From: Solirubrobacteraceae bacterium
Lineage (GTDB): Bacteria; Actinomycetota; Thermoleophilia; Solirubrobacterales; Solirubrobacteraceae
Direction: 5' to 3'
Length of the DNA stretch: 64,000 nucleotides
NCBI GenBank assembly: GCA_033856025.1
Contig: JAWVFQ010000030.1
Location: 4,239 to 68,238, forward strand
Positions 48,243-55,344 of this stretch are shown here, in pieces. A program made the translations under genes and the position numbers. How positions within the stretch are numbered: the first letter of the stretch is position 1; every line of letters begins with the position of its first letter. Below the pieces are notes generated by a model that saw only the letters and a program-made list of their open reading frames with translations, was not told the origin of the DNA and ran no database searches.

Positions 48243-50002
48243 GTGCGCGCGCGGCCGCGGCTGCGGTACACCCGCAGACCGGCGCGGGCCAGCATCTCGG
48301 GGATCTCGCGGACCGGCTCGCGGTCCTTGTCGCGCTCGGCCTCGGGGAGCTCCTCCCACGGGACCAGCAGCGGGTGCAGCCGCTGCTCGGGGTCCTTGGG
48401 CCCGGTGGTGGGCCGCCAGCCGTCGCGCTCCAGGTCGGCCATCCAGCGGTCGTGCTCCGCCCGGGCCAGCGCCTCGACCTCCTCGTCGGAGAACTCGAAC
48501 ATCGGCCCCTCGCCGTCGAGCACCAGCGGGGTGGGCGCCAGCCCGCAGCCGGTCTCCGCGAGCTTGTCGCCGATCCCGTCGGCGAAGCGCCGGTTGGAGT
48601 CGCGCAGCGACTCGGGAAGCTCGTCCCACGGCGCCACCGAGGGGTTCTCGTCCGGCGTGATCCCGCGGGCCAGCTCGGCGCGGCGGTACTGCTCGTGCTT
48701 GGCGCGGGCGATCTGCTCCGTCGTGCCGCCCAGCAGCACGGCCGGCGTGGCCGCCTCGGAGAACACGCCGAACGGCTCGATCCTCGACATGCGGCCCTCG
48801 TCGTCGGCCAGGGCGACGCCCACCCCGGCGTTGGCGTCGGGCAGCGCGACCACGACGGGCACGGCGCAGGTGTCCGGCCGCGCGTGCAGCGCCAGGGCCG
48901 CCGCCATGGCCTGCGACTGGCTCCACAGGCAGACGTAGGCGAACGTCACGTCGGCCGCCCCGTCCTCGCCCGCCATCGCGCCGCCCTCGCGAAACGCGCC
49001 CGACTCCAGCGGCATCTGCCGCGCGTCCAGGCGGCACGCACGCTCCAGCGCCGGCTGGCGCTCGATCAGCGCGGCCACGTCGGACTCCGCGTTCGGTCCG
49101 GCCACGGTCACGCGCAGGCGCGGCGCCTGGTCGACCGTCAGGGCGTGCCAGGTGTTGACGAGGTGCAGCAGCAGCTGCTCGCCCACGCTCTCCAGGCCCA
49201 CGATGAGCACGTGCGGGTCCGGCGTGTCCTTGAACGGCGGCCAGCGCTGGACCATCAGGCGCGCCGCGGTCAGGTAGACGTTGAAGAACTCCAGGCGGAT
49301 GCTGGGCTCGCGCGCCGTGGTGAGCGCCTCGGCGGTCAGCGAGCGCAGCAGCTCGGGGTCGTCGAGGTGGGCGAAGACGGTGAGGATGCCCGTCTTGCGC
49401 TGGTCGAGCAGCTGCTCGGCCGCGGCCGCGGCGTCGACGTTGATCCCGTCCTCACCGCAGGTGAGGAAGAGCAGGCGCGCCCGGTCCACGCCGGTGCGCG
49501 CCAGCAGCGCGGGGTCCGCGGCGTCGCCCGCCACGACGATCGCGCCGCGCTCGCGCGCGCCCTCGGCGCCCGCGCTGTGCACGTTGCCGTCGATGGCCAC
49601 GACGTGATGGCCGCCCTCGCGGAACGCGGCGGCCAGGCGGCGGCCCATCTCCCCCAGGCCGGCCACGACCACGTGGTCGCGGGCGAAGAGCCGCACCCGC
49701 ACGTGCTGGACGCGCTCGCGGAACAGCAGGACGAGGCCGCGCAGCGCCGCGTAGCCCGTGACCAGCGGACCCAGGAAGCGGGCGATCTCCAGGGTCACCG
49801 GCACCGGCGGCGCCACGTCGCCGCCCAGGCCGAACAGGCCCAGGGACCGGTAGAGCGAGTCGAGGAGGCCGTAGTCGGCGCTCTTGAGGCGGTGGAAGCC
49901 GATCGTCCCGAGGACCAGGACGGCCACGCCCGCCAGGAAGGCGATGGCCGGGCGCACCGTCCCCACCCACGGACGGACCCACTGAAGCGAGCGGCGGATC
50001 AC
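48239..50002 (-). CDS. 2TM pore-loop-like / tandem RCK (TrkA-N) protein with two C-terminal RyR domains
   Basis: GTG at 50002 overlaps the clpS stop as GTGA. Motifs VVVAGLGEMGRRLA and VLIVGLESVGEQL (Rossmann). RyR-like repeats (ARAKHEQYRR.., ARAEHDRWMADLERDGW..LVPWEELPEAERDKDR). Confidence 0.7.
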   Translation of the reverse strand: MIRRSLQWVRPWVGTVRPAIAFLAGVAVLVLGTIGFHRLKSADYGLLDSLYRSLGLFGLGGDVAPPVPVTLEIARFLGPLVTGYAALRGLVLLFRERVQHVRVRLFARDHVVVAGLGEMGRRLAAAFREGGHHVVAIDGNVHSAGAEGARERGAIVVAGDAADPALLARTGVDRARLLFLTCGEDGINVDAAAAAEQLLDQRKTGILTVFAHLDDPELLRSLTAEALTTAREPSIRLEFFNVYLTAARLMVQRWPPFKDTPDPHVLIVGLESVGEQLLLHLVNTWHALTVDQAPRLRVTVAGPNAESDVAALIERQPALERACRLDARQMPLESGAFREGGAMAGEDGAADVTFAYVCLWSQSQAMAAALALHARPDTCAVPVVVALPDANAGVGVALADDEGRMSRIEPFGVFSEAATPAVLLGGTTEQIARAKHEQYRRAELARGITPDENPSVAPWDELPESLRDSNRRFADGIGDKLAETGCGLAPTPLVLDGEGPMFEFSDEEVEALARAEHDRWMADLERDGWRPTTGPKDPEQRLHPLLVPWEELPEAERDKDREPVREIPEMLARAGLRVYRSRGRART

Positions 50003-50286
50003 CCCGGCTCGAGCGGGGCCATGGTGAGCCCCGCGTCGTTGAGCTGCTCCCAGTAGAGCTCGGCCGGCTCGCGCTGGCCGGTCCACACGATCGCCTGGCC
50101 GCTGTTGTGGATGCGGTCGGCGATCGCGTAGCCGGTGTCGAGCGACACCCCGGGTATGAAAGCGGCCACGGTCTGGGCCACGTGGTCGAACGTGTTGTGG
50201 TCGTCGTTGCGCACGATCACGCGCCACGCGCCGCCCTGGCCCGAGCCCGGGTCCGCGGCGCGCGGCAGCTCGACGGTCTGGCCCAT
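49999..50286 (-). CDS. clpS: ATP-dependent Clp protease adaptor ClpS
   Basis: 95 aa from the internal Met MGQTVEL.. of a long artefactual ORF. WRVIVRNDDHNTFDHV..ADRIHNSGQAIV signature. Confidence 0.85.
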   Translation of the reverse strand: MGQTVELPRAADPGSGQGGAWRVIVRNDDHNTFDHVAQTVAAFIPGVSLDTGYAIADRIHNSGQAIVWTGQREPAELYWEQLNDAGLTMAPLEPG

Positions 50287-51725
50287 CAGAGCTGCATGGC
50301 CTTCGGCACGAGGAACTCCTCCAGCGCGTAGCGGCCCAGCTCGCGGCCGTGGCCGGACTGCTTGAGCCCGCCGAAGGGCGCCAGCGGGTTGAACGTGGCG
50401 CCGTTGATCTCCACCTGGCCGGTCCGGATGCGCCGGGCCACGCGCTGCGCGCGCTCGGGGTCGCCCGACCACACGCCGCCGGCCAGCCCGTACTCGGTGT
50501 CGTTGGCGATGCGCACGGCGTCGTCCTCGTCGTCGTAGGGCATGATCGCCAGCACGGGGCCGAAGATCTCCTCCTGGGCGATGGTCATCTCGGGCTTGAC
50601 GTCGGAGAAGACGGTGGGCCGCACGAAGTAGCCCTGGTCCAGGCCCTCGGGCGGCTCCTCGCCGCCGGTGACCAGCCGCGCGCCCTCCGCCTCGCCCTGG
50701 CGGATGTAGCCGCGCACGCGCTCGCGCTGGGTGTCGGAGACCAGCGGCCCCAGCCGCGTGCCCTCGGCGAACGGGTCGCCGGGCGTGAACTGCTCGGCCA
50801 CGGCGGCGGCGATCCGCTCGGCCTCCTCCAGGCGCTCGCGCGGGACGAGCATGCGCGTGAGCGCGCTGCACGTCTGCCCGGAGTTCAGGAAGCACTTCGA
50901 GACGCCGTCGGCCACGGCGGCCTCCAGATCGGCGTCCTCGAGGATGACGTTGGGCGACTTGCCGCCCAGCTCCAGCGCCACCGGCTTGACCCGGGCGCTG
51001 GCCAGCTCGCTGACGCGCCGGCCCGCGCGCGTGGACCCCGTGAACGAGACCATGTCCACGCCCTCGTGGGAGACGATCGCCTCGCCGACCACGGGCCCGG
51101 TGCCCGTGACCAGGTTGAAGATGCCGGCGGGCGCGCCGACGGCCTCGAAGATCTCGGCCAGCACGAACGCGTTGAGCGGCACGACCTCCGACGGCTTGAG
51201 CACCACCGTGCATCCGGCCGCCAGGGCCGGCGCGACCTTGGCGCAGATCTGGTGCAGCGGGTAGTTCCACGGCGTGATCGCGCCGACCACGCCGGCCGGC
51301 TCGCGCACGACCAGGGAGTTGCCGATCCGCTCCTCCCAGGTCACCTGCTCCATGAGCGCGGGCATGGAGGAGAACGTCATCGTCGGCAGGCCGGCCTGAA
51401 TGGCCTTGGACAGCGGGAGCGGCATGCCGAGCTCCTGAGCCACCAGCCCCGCGATCTCGTCCGAACGGGCGGCCAGCGCGGCGGCGATGCCCTCCAGCAG
51501 CGCGGCGCGCTGCTCGCGCGGCGTCTGGGACCAGGTCTCGAAGGCCTCGCGCGCGGCGGCCACAGCGCGGTCCACGTCCCGCGGCGTCCCGGCCGGGATG
51601 CGGCCCATGACCTCCTCGGTCGTGGAGTTGACGACGTCGATCGTGTCGTCGCCCTCGGGGTCGACCCACTCGCCTCCGACGAAGAGCTTGTCGCGGACGA
51701 TCAGTGTCTGCTCGGTGGTGGCCAT
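50286..51725 (-). CDS. NAD(P)-dependent aldehyde dehydrogenase
   Basis: Motifs ELGGKSP and [10 protein letters not shown] (catalytic Cys); 479 aa. Confidence 0.9.
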
Positions 51726-51737
51726 GTGCTCTGTCTC

Positions 51738-53735
51738 CTAGGTGGTGGCGGGCTCGGCGGCGGGCTTGGCAGGCTTCGCCCCGGACGCCGCGGCGATCGC
51801 CTCGGCCGTGCGGTGGGCGAGCGCCATGATCGAGATCATCGGGTTGGTCCCCGAGGCGGACGGGAACGCGCTGGCGTCCCCCACCCACACCCCGGGCGTG
51901 TCGTGCAGCTGTCCGTGCGGATCGGCCACGCTGGTCGCCGGATCGGCGCCCATGCGGGCGGTGCCCATCTGGTGCGCCGCGAACAGGCGATGGCCCCCGA
52001 AGCGCAGCGGGATGCGCTGGAGGCGCGCGATGAACGCGTCGAGGTCGTCGCCGCGGCGCCAGCGCGGCAGGCCGGCGGCCATGCCCACGATCTCGCGCGC
52101 GCCGGCCGCCTCGTGCAGCCGGACCTGCGCGTCCAGCGCGCGGTGCATGTTGCGCACGTCGAGCTCGTCGGTCAGCGAGTACCAGGGCACCGACTCGCCG
52201 TTGGCGTCGATGTCCACCCGGCCGCCGCCGCGGTCGCGCAGCAGGCCGATGAACGTGACGCCGTAGGGCACCTGCTCCATCAGCGTCTTGTGCGCGCGGG
52301 CGCCGCCGAAGGGCAGCGCCGAGCCGATCAGGCCGGGCGCGTACTGGGCGCTCTCCACGAGGAAGCCGTGGCCGTCCTCCACTTTGTCGAACTCGTCCAC
52401 CAGCCCGGCCTGCGGGGCGCCCCACCAGGCGCGCTGGTCCTCGGGGTAGACGCCGTAGGTCGCGGTGCACGGATGCAGGTGCAGGTTCTGGCCGACGGCC
52501 GGGCCGCCGATCGCGCTGCGCAGCAGCAGGGCGGGGGTCTCCAGCGTCCCGGCGGCGGCCACGACCTGGGGCGCGCGCACGGTGACGCGCGCGGTGCGAC
52601 CGGTCTCGGGATCGGCGTAGGTGGCCTGCACGCCGGCGGCGCGCCCGCCCTCCACGAGGATGCGCTCGGCCCGCGTTCGGGCCAGGATGCGCGCGCCGCG
52701 GTTCGCCGCGTCGACCAGGTACGTCTTGGCGGTGGACTGCTTGGCCCCCGACTGGTCGCCGAAGCCCATGTAGGCGGCGGACTCCGGGTCGTACGTCTCG
52801 GGGTCGGTGTTGCGGGTGATCGTGGAGAACGACCAGTCCAGCGCCTGCGCGCCCTCCTTCATCCGCTGGTGGGGGCCGTTGAGGTCCGAGCAGTCGCCGG
52901 TCACCGACAGCCTCCCCCACACGGCGTCGAGGTGGCGCTCGAAGTCCGGCCCGCCGACGTCCTCCAGGCCTTCGTTGGCCCAGTCCTCGCGCACCCACGG
53001 CTTCGTGCGCAGGCAGTTGGTCCAGTTGACGACCGTGCCGCCGCCCAGCGTGGCGCCGGCGTAGAGCGTGACGTTGAGGTCGGCGGTGGGCTGGGGCCCG
53101 CCGCGCCAGTACATCTTCTGGTAGGCGTCGAGCTCGAGCTGGGTGAAGTCGGACTCGTTGTAGTAGCCGCCGGCCTCCAGCACGACGACGCTCGCACCCG
53201 CGGCGCTCAGCTCGCCCGCGATCACGCCGCCCCCGGCGCCGGAGCCGACGATGCACACGTCAGCCTCCAGCTCCAGCTCGTCGCCCTCGGGGACGAGCGG
53301 CTCGATCGGCTTGGCGACGGAGGGCGGGGGCGTCGTGGGCCCGGGGTAGCCGAAGGCGCGCCAGTTGGGGTTCTGTCCCGTCTGCGGGTCGATCGGCGCG
53401 CCGTAGGCCAGGAAGAGGGTGAGCGAGATCAGGGCGCCCACCCCCGCCGCGGCCTCGGGGCCGAGCAGCGAGACGTTGGTCAGCAGCTGCTCGCGCGAGT
53501 CCTGCGTGGCCCTCATGAAGCCCTGGGCGGCGAGACCGTCGAGCAGCTGCATGAGGCCCGCCAGCTGGTCGGGCGGCAGCTGGGACAGGGCATCCTCCGC
53601 CATGGCGGGCACGCCGATGTCGCCGGCCGTGCGCGCCCACAGGCCGTGCGGGTCGGGCGCGTGCTCGATGGACGGCACCACGGTGTCGCATACCGCCGCC
53701 AGGATCGCCCGTCGTGTGTCGTCGAACTCGCTCAT
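51738..53735 (-). CDS. GMC family oxidoreductase with about 130-aa N-terminal extension
   Basis: Motifs VGSGAGGGV (FAD), HQMGTARMG and GDASAFPSASGTNP at the C-terminus; 665 aa. Confidence 0.85.
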   Translation of the reverse strand: MSEFDDTRRAILAAVCDTVVPSIEHAPDPHGLWARTAGDIGVPAMAEDALSQLPPDQLAGLMQLLDGLAAQGFMRATQDSREQLLTNVSLLGPEAAAGVGALISLTLFLAYGAPIDPQTGQNPNWRAFGYPGPTTPPPSVAKPIEPLVPEGDELELEADVCIVGSGAGGGVIAGELSAAGASVVVLEAGGYYNESDFTQLELDAYQKMYWRGGPQPTADLNVTLYAGATLGGGTVVNWTNCLRTKPWVREDWANEGLEDVGGPDFERHLDAVWGRLSVTGDCSDLNGPHQRMKEGAQALDWSFSTITRNTDPETYDPESAAYMGFGDQSGAKQSTAKTYLVDAANRGARILARTRAERILVEGGRAAGVQATYADPETGRTARVTVRAPQVVAAAGTLETPALLLRSAIGGPAVGQNLHLHPCTATYGVYPEDQRAWWGAPQAGLVDEFDKVEDGHGFLVESAQYAPGLIGSALPFGGARAHKTLMEQVPYGVTFIGLLRDRGGGRVDIDANGESVPWYSLTDELDVRNMHRALDAQVRLHEAAGAREIVGMAAGLPRWRRGDDLDAFIARLQRIPLRFGGHRLFAAHQMGTARMGADPATSVADPHGQLHDTPGVWVGDASAFPSASGTNPMISIMALAHRTAEAIAAASGAKPAKPAAEPATT

Positions 53736-53765
53736 CGAACTCCTCGGTCGCTGGCGGCAGTCTCT

Positions 53766-53793
53766 CGCATGCGCCAGTACCGATCCAGGCCCA
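53766..53793. repeat. left copy of perfect 28-bp direct repeat CGCATGCGCCAGTACCGATCCAGGCCCA
   Basis: Read directly from the sequence. Identical to 54524-54551; flanking bases differ on both sides. Confidence 0.9.
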
Positions 53794-53799
53794 CCCGTC

Positions 53800-54213
53800 T
53801 CATCCGCCGGGGGCCATCGTGCGCAGACCGGCCAGACGGGCGGCCGCGCTCTGGCGTTCGTCGTAGCTCACGAAGGCGTCGAGCGGCCCCGCACCGGCCG
53901 CGGCGGCGACGTGGATGGCGTCCAGCGCGCGCAGCGCCGGCTCGGCCAGCGCGCCCGCGGCGACGAGCAGTGCGCGGTCGACCGGGACGAGGGCGAGCGC
54001 GTCGAACACCTCTCCGGCCCGCTCGACCAGGGCGCCGGGCGCCAGCCGCGGGTCGTTCGCCGCCGCACGCCGGACCGCCCGCGGGACCTCGGCCAGGACG
54101 AGCTCGCAGGAGACGAGGTCCGCGTCCCCCAGGAACGCGGTCAGCGACGCGGTCTCCGGCTCGGAGCGCACGAGCTTCACGAGCGCCGACGAATCGACGT
54201 AGAACAGCGCCAC
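53800..54213 (-). CDS. vapC: type II toxin VapC (PIN-domain ribonuclease)
   Basis: 137 aa. FYVDSSALVKL N-terminal Asp motif, with later acidic residues typical of PIN domains. Confidence 0.85.
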   Translation of the reverse strand: MALFYVDSSALVKLVRSEPETASLTAFLGDADLVSCELVLAEVPRAVRRAAANDPRLAPGALVERAGEVFDALALVPVDRALLVAAGALAEPALRALDAIHVAAAAGAGPLDAFVSYDERQSAAARLAGLRTMAPGG

Positions 54214-54214
54214 G

Positions 54215-54487
54215 TCAGCGGTCGCCGCGGACCTCGTCGAGCGCGCGGCTCAGCGAACGGGGGTCGCCGTCGAGCTCGAGCGGCTCCGGCAGCGTCCGCC
54301 GGACCGGAGGCGAGACCCGGCCGCCGGCGATCAGGCGGTCCAGCGCTTCGCCGCCGGCGGGCGGCGGCCCCAGCTCGGCGACCGGCCGGTTGCGATCGGT
54401 CACCACGAGGCGCTCTCCCCGCTCCACCCGGCGCAGGTAGCGGCTCAGGTTCTGCCGCAGCTCCCCGATGCCGACCGCGTTCTTCAT
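54215..54487 (-). CDS. type II antitoxin, Phd/YefM family
   Basis: 90 aa from the ATG at 54487. IGELRQNLSRYLRRVERGERLVVTDRNRPVAEL. Stop is 1 nt before the vapC start. Confidence 0.85.
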   Translation of the reverse strand: MKNAVGIGELRQNLSRYLRRVERGERLVVTDRNRPVAELGPPPAGGEALDRLIAGGRVSPPVRRTLPEPLELDGDPRSLSRALDEVRGDR

Positions 54488-54513
54488 GTACACGAAGGTA
54501 GCAGTTCGGGACT

Positions 54514-55344
54514 TCACGCATCCCGCATGCGCCAGTACCGATCCAGGCCCAGGTACTGGAGCGCGGGCGGGCAGGCCTGGAGGAAGGCGTCGGACTCGGG
54601 GTCCGCCTGCATCTCGGCGCGGGTGCGGGCCTCGAACTCGTCGGCGTCGAGCTCGCGGGCCAGCGTGCCCCAGTGCGTGAGGGCGTCGCGCATCGCGGCC
54701 AGGTGCTCGAAGGGGCGCTCGACGCCCCCGAAGTGCGTCAGGCCGAGCGACTCGGGGCGCCAGGCGGCGATCCTCGACAGCGACTCGTTCCAGGCCTCGA
54801 GGTCGATGTCCGGCGGGGGGGTCGGCGGGACGATCGCGCCGCCGGGGACGATCTGCACCCCGGCCATGTCGCCGACCAGCGCGAGGCCGCTCGGCTCGTG
54901 CAGGTAGCAGACGTGGTGCGAGGCGTGGCCGGGCGTGTACTCCACCTGGAAGCCCTCCACCGCCTCGCCGCCGGACAGCGCGCGGACGTTGCGCTCGGGG
55001 ACCGGCACGACCTCGCCCCACAGGCGCGCCATGTCCTCGCCGTACAGTCGCCCGGCGCTGTCGAGCAGGCGCGACGGGTCGACGAGGTGGGGCGCGCCGC
55101 GCTCGTGGACGTAGACCGGGAGGTCGGGCCAGCGGCGCACCATCGCGCCGGTCGCGCCGGCGTGGTCGAGGTGGATGTGGGTGAGCAGCAGCGCCCGCGG
55201 CGCCTCGCCGCCGAGCTCCTCCAGCAGGTGGTCCAGCGAGGACTCCGGCCCGGGATCGATCAGCACGTCGCCCACCTGCCAGCAGCAGATCACGCGCTCG
55301 CGGCCCAGATGGCGGACGTCGATGGGTCGGGCCGGTGGCATCAC
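54514..55344 (-). CDS. MBL-fold metallo-hydrolase
   Basis: Motifs THIHLDHAG and YTPGHASHH. An ATG one codon downstream (55341) is an alternative start. Confidence 0.85.
   Translation of the reverse strand: MMPPARPIDVRHLGRERVICCWQVGDVLIDPGPESSLDHLLEELGGEAPRALLLTHIHLDHAGATGAMVRRWPDLPVYVHERGAPHLVDPSRLLDSAGRLYGEDMARLWGEVVPVPERNVRALSGGEAVEGFQVEYTPGHASHHVCYLHEPSGLALVGDMAGVQIVPGGAIVPPTPPPDIDLEAWNESLSRIAAWRPESLGLTHFGGVERPFEHLAAMRDALTHWGTLARELDADEFEARTRAEMQADPESDAFLQACPPALQYLGLDRYWRMRDA
54524..54551. repeat. right copy of the 28-bp direct repeat (inside the 3-prime end of the MBL-fold gene)
   Basis: Read directly from the sequence. On the minus strand it encodes ..GLDRYWRMR of the MBL protein. Confidence 0.9.

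Follow-up and report, generated by a model that had tools for sequence, protein, structure and literature searches.

Gene units inserted between long direct repeats have been described under the term 'insertion with long target duplication' (Nobusato et al. 2000, Gene 259:99; Furuta, Abe & Kobayashi 2010, NAR 38:2428, PMC2853133). Such units are bounded by direct repeats of more than 30 bp, carry no mobility genes and have one copy of the repeat in the corresponding empty genome; the reported repeats range from 46 to over 400 bp and can overlap the 3' end of a neighbouring gene, as in H. influenzae with 46-bp repeats, and gene fusions were noted at the junctions (PMC2853133). The mechanism was left unknown, with the DNA-breakage property of the cargo suggested as a common cause (PMC2853133). 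A second described group consists of chromosomal toxin-antitoxin (TA) 'genomic islets', such as ccdO157 in E. coli (Van Melderen & Saavedra De Bast 2009, PMC2654758).

The locus considered here lies on the minus strand of a 64,000-nt stretch of DNA (the window, i.e., the whole stretch that was analysed) and consists of a vapBC pair located between an MBL-fold hydrolase gene (54514..55344, Pfam Lactamase_B 2.5e-19, orthologues in 80 genomes) and its downstream neighbour, a GMC oxidoreductase gene (51738..53735, Pfam GMC_oxred_N/C). The gene calls for MBL, the antitoxin, PIN and GMC proved correct. The remainder of the operon comprises an aldehyde dehydrogenase gene (ALDH, 50286-51725, minus strand) and ClpS (49999-50286, minus strand, TGATG overlap); in relatives further away, ClpS sits next to MBL, which is the ancestral arrangement. 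Five loci have an extra 0.8 kb between MBL and ClpS; this segment was considered as a second TA pair and rejected, as it encodes a protein of ~230 aa with a signal-peptide-like N-terminus.

Exactly two copies of the 28-mer CGCATGCGCCAGTACCGATCCAGGCCCA are present in the window (53766-53793 and 54524-54551), as the initial annotation had reported, and no further copy was found there with up to three mismatches allowed (0 expected, 100 shuffles), which rules out both a dispersed generic repeat and a chance origin. The 28-nt length given earlier holds for the exact match, but the true repeat reaches 31 nt with one mismatch (53763-53793 / 54521-54551, 30/31 matching), the mismatch being a synonymous Arg codon (CGG vs CGA on the coding minus strand). 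A length of 28-31 nt is close to the lower limit for homologous pairing. The same structure was recovered in two independent metagenome assemblies of the window's organism (L175, 100% identical to the window over 8.2 kb, and L176, 1 SNP in 3.6 kb), so that an assembly artefact was ruled out.

Read in the direction of transcription (all features on the minus strand), the right, upstream copy of the target (54521..54551) is functional and encodes ..GLDRYWRMR(D) of MBL. It is followed by a 17-nt junction filler (TGCGTGAAGTCCCGAAC, 54504..54520), which can be aligned with the fillers of other occupied lineages and from which the new MBL stop (TGA, 54516-54514) comes, and then by the left edge of the cassette, a 16-nt putative extended -10 promoter (TGCTACCTTCGTGTAC, 54488..54503). 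The cassette continues with a Phd/YefM-type antitoxin gene (54215..54487, 90 aa, MKNAVGIGELRQ..., Pfam PhdYeFM_antitox 2e-9) and a PIN-domain (VapC-type) toxin gene (53800..54213, 137 aa, Pfam PIN 1.9e-13). A 6-nt spacer (GACGGG, 53794..53799), kept as ACGCG in L082 and as a single G in L177/L178, separates the PIN stop from the left, downstream target copy (53763..53793), which no longer codes and is a relic of the MBL 3' end as it was before the insertion. Next to it lies the relic of the original MBL tail (..ETAASDRGVR-TGA, 53732..53762), homologous to the MBL tails of empty sites; within it are the ribosome-binding site of GMC (GAGGAG) and the ATGA by which it overlaps the GMC start. Operon expression is preserved despite the cassette, because the latter is co-oriented and has no terminator and the relic retains the GMC ribosome-binding site; a search for RNA structure in the relic gave z = -0.8 and no terminator. 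The relic frame is open from the ATG up to the GMC start in 4/5 independent lineages, but this was rejected as evidence of selection for translational coupling, because DNA of 73% G+C is expected to give twelve stop-free codons anyway.

The initial annotation had read vapBC as a discrete insertion into a formerly coupled operon, and both a virtual deletion and empty sites in relatives support this. Removal of positions 53794-54551 (758 bp) in silico reproduced the ATGA-coupled MBL-GMC junction, giving a 284-aa MBL protein ending in ...YWRMRETAASDRGVR whose TGA overlaps the GMC ATG. MBL-GMC loci without vapBC were present in L081, L083/L084, L085 and L183, as well as in L182 (33-nt gap). In the first four of these, all close relatives, a single repeat copy is found at the MBL-GMC junction, the MBL stop overlaps the GMC start by 4 nt as ATGA, and the MBL tails (RMRETAATEGNQRGEG, RMRQTAGTESERGER, RMRETDRNDEGVR and RMRETARNDQGDG) are homologous to the predicted RMRETAASDRGVR, in agreement with the junction and C-terminus that had been foreseen for an empty site. 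The tails of the empty-site relatives are 8-12 residues longer than that of the window; the present MBL C-terminus (...RYWRMRDA-stop) is a replacement produced by the insertion. GMC was once translationally coupled to MBL.

All cassettes at the MBL-GMC site share one origin. VapC proteins closer than ~80% to that of the window are all located in this site, and among 68 family members the cassettes of the window and L082 pair with each other as nearest neighbours (95% bootstrap). At every occupied locus there is a filler of 20-24 nt that contains a TGA (GCGTGAAG, GCTTGACA, GGCTGAAT, GCCTGACA, GGCTGAAG and GCCTGACC); the fillers can be aligned, with the TGA in common, and L177 and L178 both have G after the PIN stop. 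By its sequence divergence the insertion is also old, predating the split of at least five lineages and not recent in the window's genome, because cassette divergence tracks flank divergence (window vs L177: cassette 89.5%, flanks 90.0% nt identity; window vs L082: 83.7% and 88.6%). A full-length relic is kept in three lineages, i.e., the window, L179 (24/33) and L087 (21/30), the last two decayed, and it is truncated in L177/L178 and in L082, where PIN is fused to the relic tail. The shortened relics can be derived from the full-length one by clean deletions, and the fates found among lineages are a truncated relic, a fusion of PIN with the relic tail, or a deleted toxin. From the comparison of fillers and relics, the original target duplication was probably at least 31 nt and can be reconstructed as ~38-45 nt.

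Among the occupied lineages, only the window has a perfect relic repeat. If the relic had drifted neutrally after the window's lineage parted from its closest relatives, a perfect 28-nt copy would have a probability of ~0.004-0.017, and it is best explained by homogenisation, not by a recent insertion. L083, L177, L178 and L183 all carry the 28-mer of the functional copy unchanged in their MBL genes, and homogenisation could have proceeded by gene conversion from this constrained copy or by recombinational refresh against the empty allele.

The distribution of occupied and empty alleles bears on whether the cassette still moves. The relatives are without exception metagenome contigs or MAGs, and three or four genes underlie the species tree. 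Empty sites are nested among occupied lineages (L085 by L082, L183 by L178), which requires precise losses or repeated gains and could equally mean a site-specific process. Occupied L178 and empty L183 have flanks that are 99.4% and 98.9% identical, and L082 and L085 show a uniform identity of 90-93% as far as the junction; the idea that the occupied allele was imported into L082 via long homologous flanks was rejected, as no mosaic tract was seen. Such near-identical backgrounds (L178/L183 ~99%, L082/L085 ~90%) with no co-transferred flanking tract would be expected if the 758-bp unit (one repeat, filler and vapBC) excised as a circle via the repeats and re-entered naive MBL 3' ends by homologous recombination (Campbell-type or double-crossover) after transfer from strain to strain, perfect repeats then marking a recent integration. 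We regard this cycling as unlikely, although several observations agree with it: the divergence between L177 and L178 is 11% over the cassette but 2.6% over GMC+ALDH, with a sharp change at the PIN/GMC boundary, a variant of the relic tail (C vs G, column 13) is linked to occupancy and not to flank phylogeny, the window repeat is perfect where neutral decay is expected, and the near-invariant 28-mer is a possible common landing pad among lineages. However, the repeat amounts to only 8-9 nt in L177/L178 and to 14/15 in L082, which is too short for efficient homologous recombination, and these short-repeat lineages are those with the closest empty relatives. Moreover, neither circles nor tandem arrays of the unit were observed, the linkage with occupancy rests on a single site, and homologous allele exchange via the long flanking genes together with faster TA evolution explains most of the data. 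A bolder version, which we consider quite improbable, would make the unit a recombinase-free, site-specific mobile cassette with the duplicated, highly conserved MBL 3' codons as its ends, which departs by deletion between the repeats or as a circle and returns to empty alleles through host homologous recombination, and in which post-segregational killing biases exchange towards the occupied allele and re-entry renews the perfect repeats. If true, it would cover the perfect 28-mer, the ~99% identical occupied/empty pairs and the incongruence between cassette and flanks.

The gene pair itself is self-contained. The insert spans 727 nt (~0.73 kb) and includes the complete module of putative promoter, antitoxin and toxin in the layout of a type II TA operon, with the antitoxin first and the PIN toxin after the Phd/YefM antitoxin; it is conserved as a pair in more than 80 loci. 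The window antitoxin is 89% identical to that of L082, the acidic residues D7, E42, D98 and D118 of PIN are invariant between the window and L082, and the toxin has 3553 homologues at E<=1e-40, some of which are named VapC family toxin by NCBI. A promoter-like box (TGn-TAnnnT, a single copy of the pattern in the window) ends 7 nt before the antitoxin ATG, and an invariant TGCTACnTT is found 7 nt upstream of the ATG in 66 loci representing at least 60 contexts, with an information content of ~2 bits at -16 to -8 and <0.7 bits from -17 outward (66 unique family loci). This element (54488..54503) would be expected to act as an extended -10 promoter, and its ending 7 nt before the ATG implies a leaderless mRNA, by analogy with promoters of M. 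tuberculosis and with TA modules whose transcripts are leaderless (PMC3898074); the invariant motif is in line with extended -10 promoters of actinobacteria. A scan for E. coli-type sigma-70 promoters gave no match, the scan model being ill-suited to this phylum. The promoter is overlapped by a near-palindrome, CGTGTACATG in the window and CATGTACATG in most family members, which is a putative operator.

The idea that other TA modules might be flanked by similar repeats was not borne out. The cassette family is known from 60 or more further contexts and lacks flanking repeats there: at 57 other loci of the family the longest match was 12 nt (99th percentile of the null, 11), which rules out long flanking repeats as a trait of this vapBC family. 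Family similarity stops at the PIN stop codon, with nothing conserved beyond it in ~60 loci, and a donor-borne homology to the target was rejected, since nothing target-like was found beside the cassettes in other contexts. Phage carriage was likewise rejected, as six matches of the promoter pattern on viral contigs all lacked the cassette.

The searches for mobility machinery confirmed the earlier statement that no integrase, transposase or attC-like element is nearby. No integrase or transposase domains were found within ~10 kb of the cassette (41-59 kb of the window), the ends of the insert lack terminal inverted repeats, and no tRNA was found at the locus; in addition, no attC-like site was found at the family 3' ends or here, where only 6 nt separate the PIN stop from the relic and no conserved sequence extends past the stop. 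A conventional transposable element (IS, MITE-like or transposon) or an integron attC cassette mobilised in trans is thereby effectively refuted. The insert does have direct repeats on both sides, and integron cassettes are known to carry TA pairs (PMC2654758), but a duplication of at least 31 nt is far above the target duplications of transposases (2-14 bp), terminal inverted repeats, transposase, integron integrase and attC-like sequence are all missing, and flanking repeats are absent from the 57 other loci of the family.

The repeats could instead be attL and attR of an integrase island that used the MBL 3' end as its att site and later lost everything except the addiction module beside attR. 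A duplicated gene 3' end, a surrogate C-terminus and a repeat of 28-45 nt are typical of 3'-end integrators, and TA modules are expected to outlast island decay. Integrase-borne carriage of this vapBC family does occur, because some members have a tRNA-Met 3' fragment at a distance of 13-35 nt: at L101, L104, L122 and L154 a 46-nt fragment, which runs from the anticodon stem to the 3' end and is a typical integrase attachment site, follows the PIN stop at this distance and mirrors the arrangement of PIN stop, 6 nt and relic in the window. A tRNA-linked island was also considered at L102/L108/L115/L165, where a full tRNA-Met lies upstream, and was rejected, as these loci have no integrase and no tRNA-derived repeats. 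For the MBL-GMC site, the island reading is improbable. No integrase or other island gene was found in ~9 occupied lineages or within ~10 kb, and no larger occupant of the site exists in any sampled genome. Only 17-24 nt lie between the upstream repeat and the promoter in every lineage, so the reduction would have to have been complete and extremely tight before divergence. Furthermore, a downstream repeat of the own MBL 3' end was absent from 80 more distant loci (scores 11-14, equal to the control), which speaks against the MBL 3' end as a recurrent attachment site, and the window contains no other copy of the 28-mer.

We slightly favour an explanation in which the ~0.73-kb TA islet derives from one old insertion that duplicated the MBL 3' end, a one-off, host-mediated illegitimate event whose product was later inherited, exchanged, lost or decayed. 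A self-sufficient vapBC module entered the last MBL codons once, in an ancestor of a group of Solirubrobacteraceae lineages, within the operon MBL-GMC-ALDH-ClpS, and duplicated at least 31 nt of its target; the upstream copy still ends MBL, with a stop from the filler, and the downstream copy is the non-coding relic before GMC. A one-off host-mediated event is the likeliest because recombinase, inverted repeats and attC are lacking and the family has no flanking repeats elsewhere. For the original insertion we infer host break repair or template switching: either end joining captured a linear DNA fragment where a double strand had broken in a staggered way and the ~40-nt overhangs were filled in, or replication switched template, leaving and re-entering the MBL 3' end. 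No microhomology or donor context was identified for it. The occupied allele would have been inherited but also exchanged or lost among related strains, and in this way occupied and empty alleles would coexist in ~99% identical genomes. The initial annotation had called the mobilisation unexplained; the mechanism is still inferred, but the mode of insertion has a published precedent (PMC2853133).

With this locus, 'insertion with long target duplication', so far mainly restriction-modification, is extended to a TA pair. PIN toxins are RNases. Since the cargo is a PIN toxin and not a restriction-modification system, DNA cleavage by the cargo cannot be the common cause, and a host repair or replication process is indicated. 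The clade also offers a natural time series of what becomes of a TA islet within an operon, with states ranging over perfect repeat, truncated relic, toxin-relic tail fusion, deleted toxin and empty site, and L178/L183 (~99% identity) are a tractable pair for studying addiction-module bias in allelic exchange. The locus illustrates cleanly, though not for the first time, how a TA module enters and leaves a genome; it adds no new principle, and current views stand.

Compared with known systems, the window locus fits 'insertion with long target duplication', with TA as cargo. It is a complete module of less than 20 kb, its repeat is single-copy in empty relatives and not dispersed, and no mobility gene is linked; regarding the threshold of >30 bp, 28 nt exact and 31 nt with one mismatch are borderline. 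Both the described units and the window combine a cargo of the post-segregational-killing type with a repeat that can overlap a gene 3' end and no recombinase, and the junction fusions noted there resemble the fusion of PIN with the relic tail in L082. They differ in cargo (restriction-modification vs a type II TA with a PIN toxin) and in repeat length, which is short in the window (31 nt now, perhaps 38-45 originally); unlike the precedents, the window has a Thermoleophilia host, a position inside a translationally coupled operon and an old event followed by a series of decay states. TA islets of the ccdO157 type were described in intergenic regions, and we know of none described with a long target duplication. 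They share with the window a TA operon standing alone between conserved genes, presence/absence polymorphism and progressive decay of toxin and antitoxin, whereas the insertion in the window cuts and duplicates the last codons of a gene. Integrative elements at the 3' ends of tRNA or protein genes have in common with it the duplicated and surrogate 3' ends, but the window lacks an integrase, other cargo or a larger version at the site. With actinobacterial VapBC modules, finally, it shares near-abutting genes in antitoxin-first order, a TANNNT-type putative promoter, a leaderless geometry and a palindrome over the promoter; the module itself has no unusual feature.

The window originates from a Solirubrobacteraceae MAG, in which the genes of an MBL-fold hydrolase (MBL; 54514-55344), a Phd/YefM antitoxin (54215-54487), a PIN-domain toxin (VapC; 53800-54213), a GMC oxidoreductase (GMC; 51738-53735), an aldehyde dehydrogenase (ALDH; 50286-51725) and ClpS (49999-50286) all lie on the minus strand. 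The two 28-nt copies that the initial annotation had placed at 53766-53793 and 54524-54551 were both found there on one strand, with no third copy in the window at up to 3 mismatches (none is expected by chance), and the repeat lengthened to 31 nt when one mismatch was included. The mismatch is a synonymous arginine codon on the minus strand, CGG in the functional copy (MBL 3' end) and CGA in the non-coding downstream copy before GMC (hereafter the relic). Both codons differ from the CGC of most relatives at this site (window 53765 / 54523), which may have changed twice with the adjacent 28 positions unchanged in either copy. The same structure was present in two independent metagenome assemblies of this organism (L175, 100% identical over 8.2 kb; L176, one SNP).

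In silico removal of 53794-54551 gave the coupled junction that had been anticipated, i.e., an MBL protein of 284 aa ending in ...RMRETAASDRGVR, the TGA of which falls within the ATGA at the GMC start. Several of the closest MBL homologues carry tails (RMRETAATEGNQRGEG, RMRETDRNDEGVR, RMRETATTPGDERGAR, RMRETARNDQGDG) with homology to the tail predicted for the relic; on their contigs (loci L081, L083/L084, L085 and L183) vapBC is missing, and a 4-nt MBL-GMC overlap (ATGA) is followed by ALDH and ClpS. The more distant L182 (73% MBL identity) was empty too, but with a 33-nt MBL-GMC gap and no overlap. Therefore, the proposed discrete insertion into a once-coupled junction was supported by relatives without vapBC.

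The GMC-ALDH pair (within window 49999-53735) is itself lineage-specific cargo at the MBL 3' junction. Of 80 Solirubrobacterales loci at greater distance (L001-L080), 34 had ClpS immediately behind MBL, in many cases overlapping it by ATGA or GTGA, and none carried GMC or ALDH at that position; the junction has therefore taken up inserts on at least two occasions. L039, L052, L058, L059 and L062 have a third type of cargo here: a protein of ~230 aa whose N-terminus resembles a signal peptide (…VYSNDFSS…LKVQVPNP) is encoded between MBL and ClpS, ~0.8 kb past the MBL stop.

The vapBC insertion goes back to a single early event and is not recent. All VapCs more than ~80% identical to that of the window occupy the same site (L177, 90%; L178, 85%; L179-L181, 83%; L082, 81%), the window and L082 cassettes are each other's closest family members (bootstrap 95%), and cassette divergence parallels that of the flanks. 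The filler, i.e., the stretch between the MBL repeat copy and the cassette, could be aligned among all occupied lineages, with a TGA common to all.

A relic that is both full-length and perfect exists only in the window. L179 (24/33) and L087 (21/30; toxin lost, antitoxin shortened) retain it at full length in a decayed form, while in L177/L178 it was shortened to TGAG followed by ATGCGCGAA, the outcome expected if 28 nt had been cleanly deleted from an ancestor resembling the window. L082 has lost the PIN stop together with 20 nt of the relic, and PIN continues into the relic tail (...RMRETDRNDEGEG) and terminates in ATGA. The ancestral duplication was therefore long (at least 31 nt), and comparison of the fillers with native tails suggests ~38-45 nt. 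L087/L088 (1210-1540), with an antitoxin cut to 75 aa, a toxin remnant of ~100 nt and a diverged relic, show an advanced stage in the decay of a TA islet at this site.

The PIN-to-GMC region showed three arrangements, all ending in the GMC ATGA overlap: a relic frame still open between PIN and GMC (window), a deletion that sets the relic ATG one base past the PIN stop (TGAGATG; L177:1188-1230, L178:4412-4454) and an in-frame fusion of PIN to the relic tail (L082:5040-5094). The persistence of ATGA in all three hints at selection for translational coupling, without statistical support.

The probability that a neutral 28-nt relic stayed unchanged was 0.004-0.017 (at half the four-fold-site divergence from the closest relatives), and the remaining full-length relics had lost ~27-30% identity. 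RNA structure in the relic region was not significant and no terminator was found there. Possible explanations are gene conversion templated by the functional copy (which is under constraint), a refresh through recombination with an empty allele, or chance; the perfect window relic is the one feature that sustains a more active, repeat-dependent model.

Occupancy did not follow the flank phylogeny. The empty L085 is sister to the occupied L082, and import of an occupied allele via long flanking homology was excluded here by identities that stay uniformly at 90-93% as far as the junction from either side. The empty L183 and the occupied L178 have flanks 99.4% and 98.9% identical, with the occupied L177 as outgroup (97.5%), and the repeat bracketing the L178 insert relative to L183 has just 9 nt (ATGCGCGAA). 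At one relic-tail site the base goes with occupancy, L177 and L178 having C where L183 and the others all have G; this is weak evidence for allele exchange and against a simple deletion in situ. Between L177 and L178, divergence is 11% in the cassette vs. 2.6% in GMC+ALDH and changes sharply where PIN meets GMC, consistent with recombination import or fast TA gene evolution. In this comparison (L177:430-1170) the cassette (89% identity) and the MBL 3' end (93%) are 3-4x more diverged than GMC+ALDH (97.4%). Gain or loss at the MBL-GMC site therefore went on long after the first insertion.

A scan of metagenome contigs recovered 200 loci of the same Phd-PIN family (64-84% identity); the 80 that were fetched fell into at least 60 contexts, none adjoining this MBL or GMC. 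Family similarity sets in abruptly 16 nt 5' of the antitoxin ATG (TGCTAC[C/A/T]TTnnTGTAC; ~2 bits at -16 to -8 and < 0.7 bits farther out, 66 unique loci) and ends at the PIN stop codon. The 16-nt element directly before the ATG (TGCTACnTTnnTGTAC; window 54485-54503 and 66 family loci) is nearly invariant, while the proteins are only 64-84% identical. As a predicted promoter, TGCTACnTT agrees with the extended -10 of actinobacteria (TGnTAnnnT), its position 7 nt from the ATG would imply a leaderless transcript, and the overlapping palindrome CATGTACATG may be an operator. In M. tuberculosis, promoters of this class work without a -35 element, and leaderless transcripts are found for 32 of the 37 TA modules (PMC3898074); by analogy, the module is probably self-expressing at any landing site. 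In the window the conserved core (54503-53800, 704 nt) is separated from the repeats by a 6-nt spacer on one side and on the other by a 17-nt filler, from which MBL takes its new stop codon. The sharp edges of family similarity mark where selection acts and alone do not define a mobile unit.

The initial annotation saw no integrase or transposase nearby, and no domain of either kind occurs within ~10 kb of the insert; terminal inverted repeats at the insert and tRNAs in the window were also absent, and the transposon and integron models fail on their defining features. The longest flanking direct repeat in 57 other family loci was 12 nt (null 99th percentile, 11), thus long duplications are atypical of the family. 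No homology to the target was found beside cassettes in other contexts, and in the 80 more distant MBL loci no MBL 3' end was repeated downstream. These results argue against dedicated machinery. A reduced integrase-borne island carries some weight, as four family members (L101, L104, L122, L154) have, 13-35 nt past the PIN stop, a 46-nt tRNA-Met 3' part running from the anticodon stem to the end, which is the footprint of an integrase attachment site; however, island genes were retained in no lineage and the filler has just 17-24 nt. In L102, L108, L115 and L165, a complete tRNA-Met gene of the same orientation lies 0.75-1.5 kb upstream. The DNA fetched around the tRNA-Met-linked loci contained neither an integrase nor tRNA-derived repeats. 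PIN-domain toxins are RNases, which makes a host process likelier than DNA breakage by the cargo: a staggered break could have captured the fragment, followed by fill-in repair, or a replication template switch may have produced the duplication.

Insertions with long target duplication have been described as gene units with long, variable duplications and no other mobile element, for which the empty genome has one repeat copy and the repeat sometimes overlaps a gene 3' end (PMC2853133). The window insert matches these in the absence of mobility genes, the single copy in empty relatives and the location at a gene 3' end, with a target duplication of borderline length (28 nt exact, 31 nt with one mismatch), but its cargo toxin is a PIN-domain protein, whereas those authors suspected DNA breakage by restriction enzymes as the common cause. 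The insert is a further member of a known, little-studied kind of insertion, with an unusually complete comparative series.
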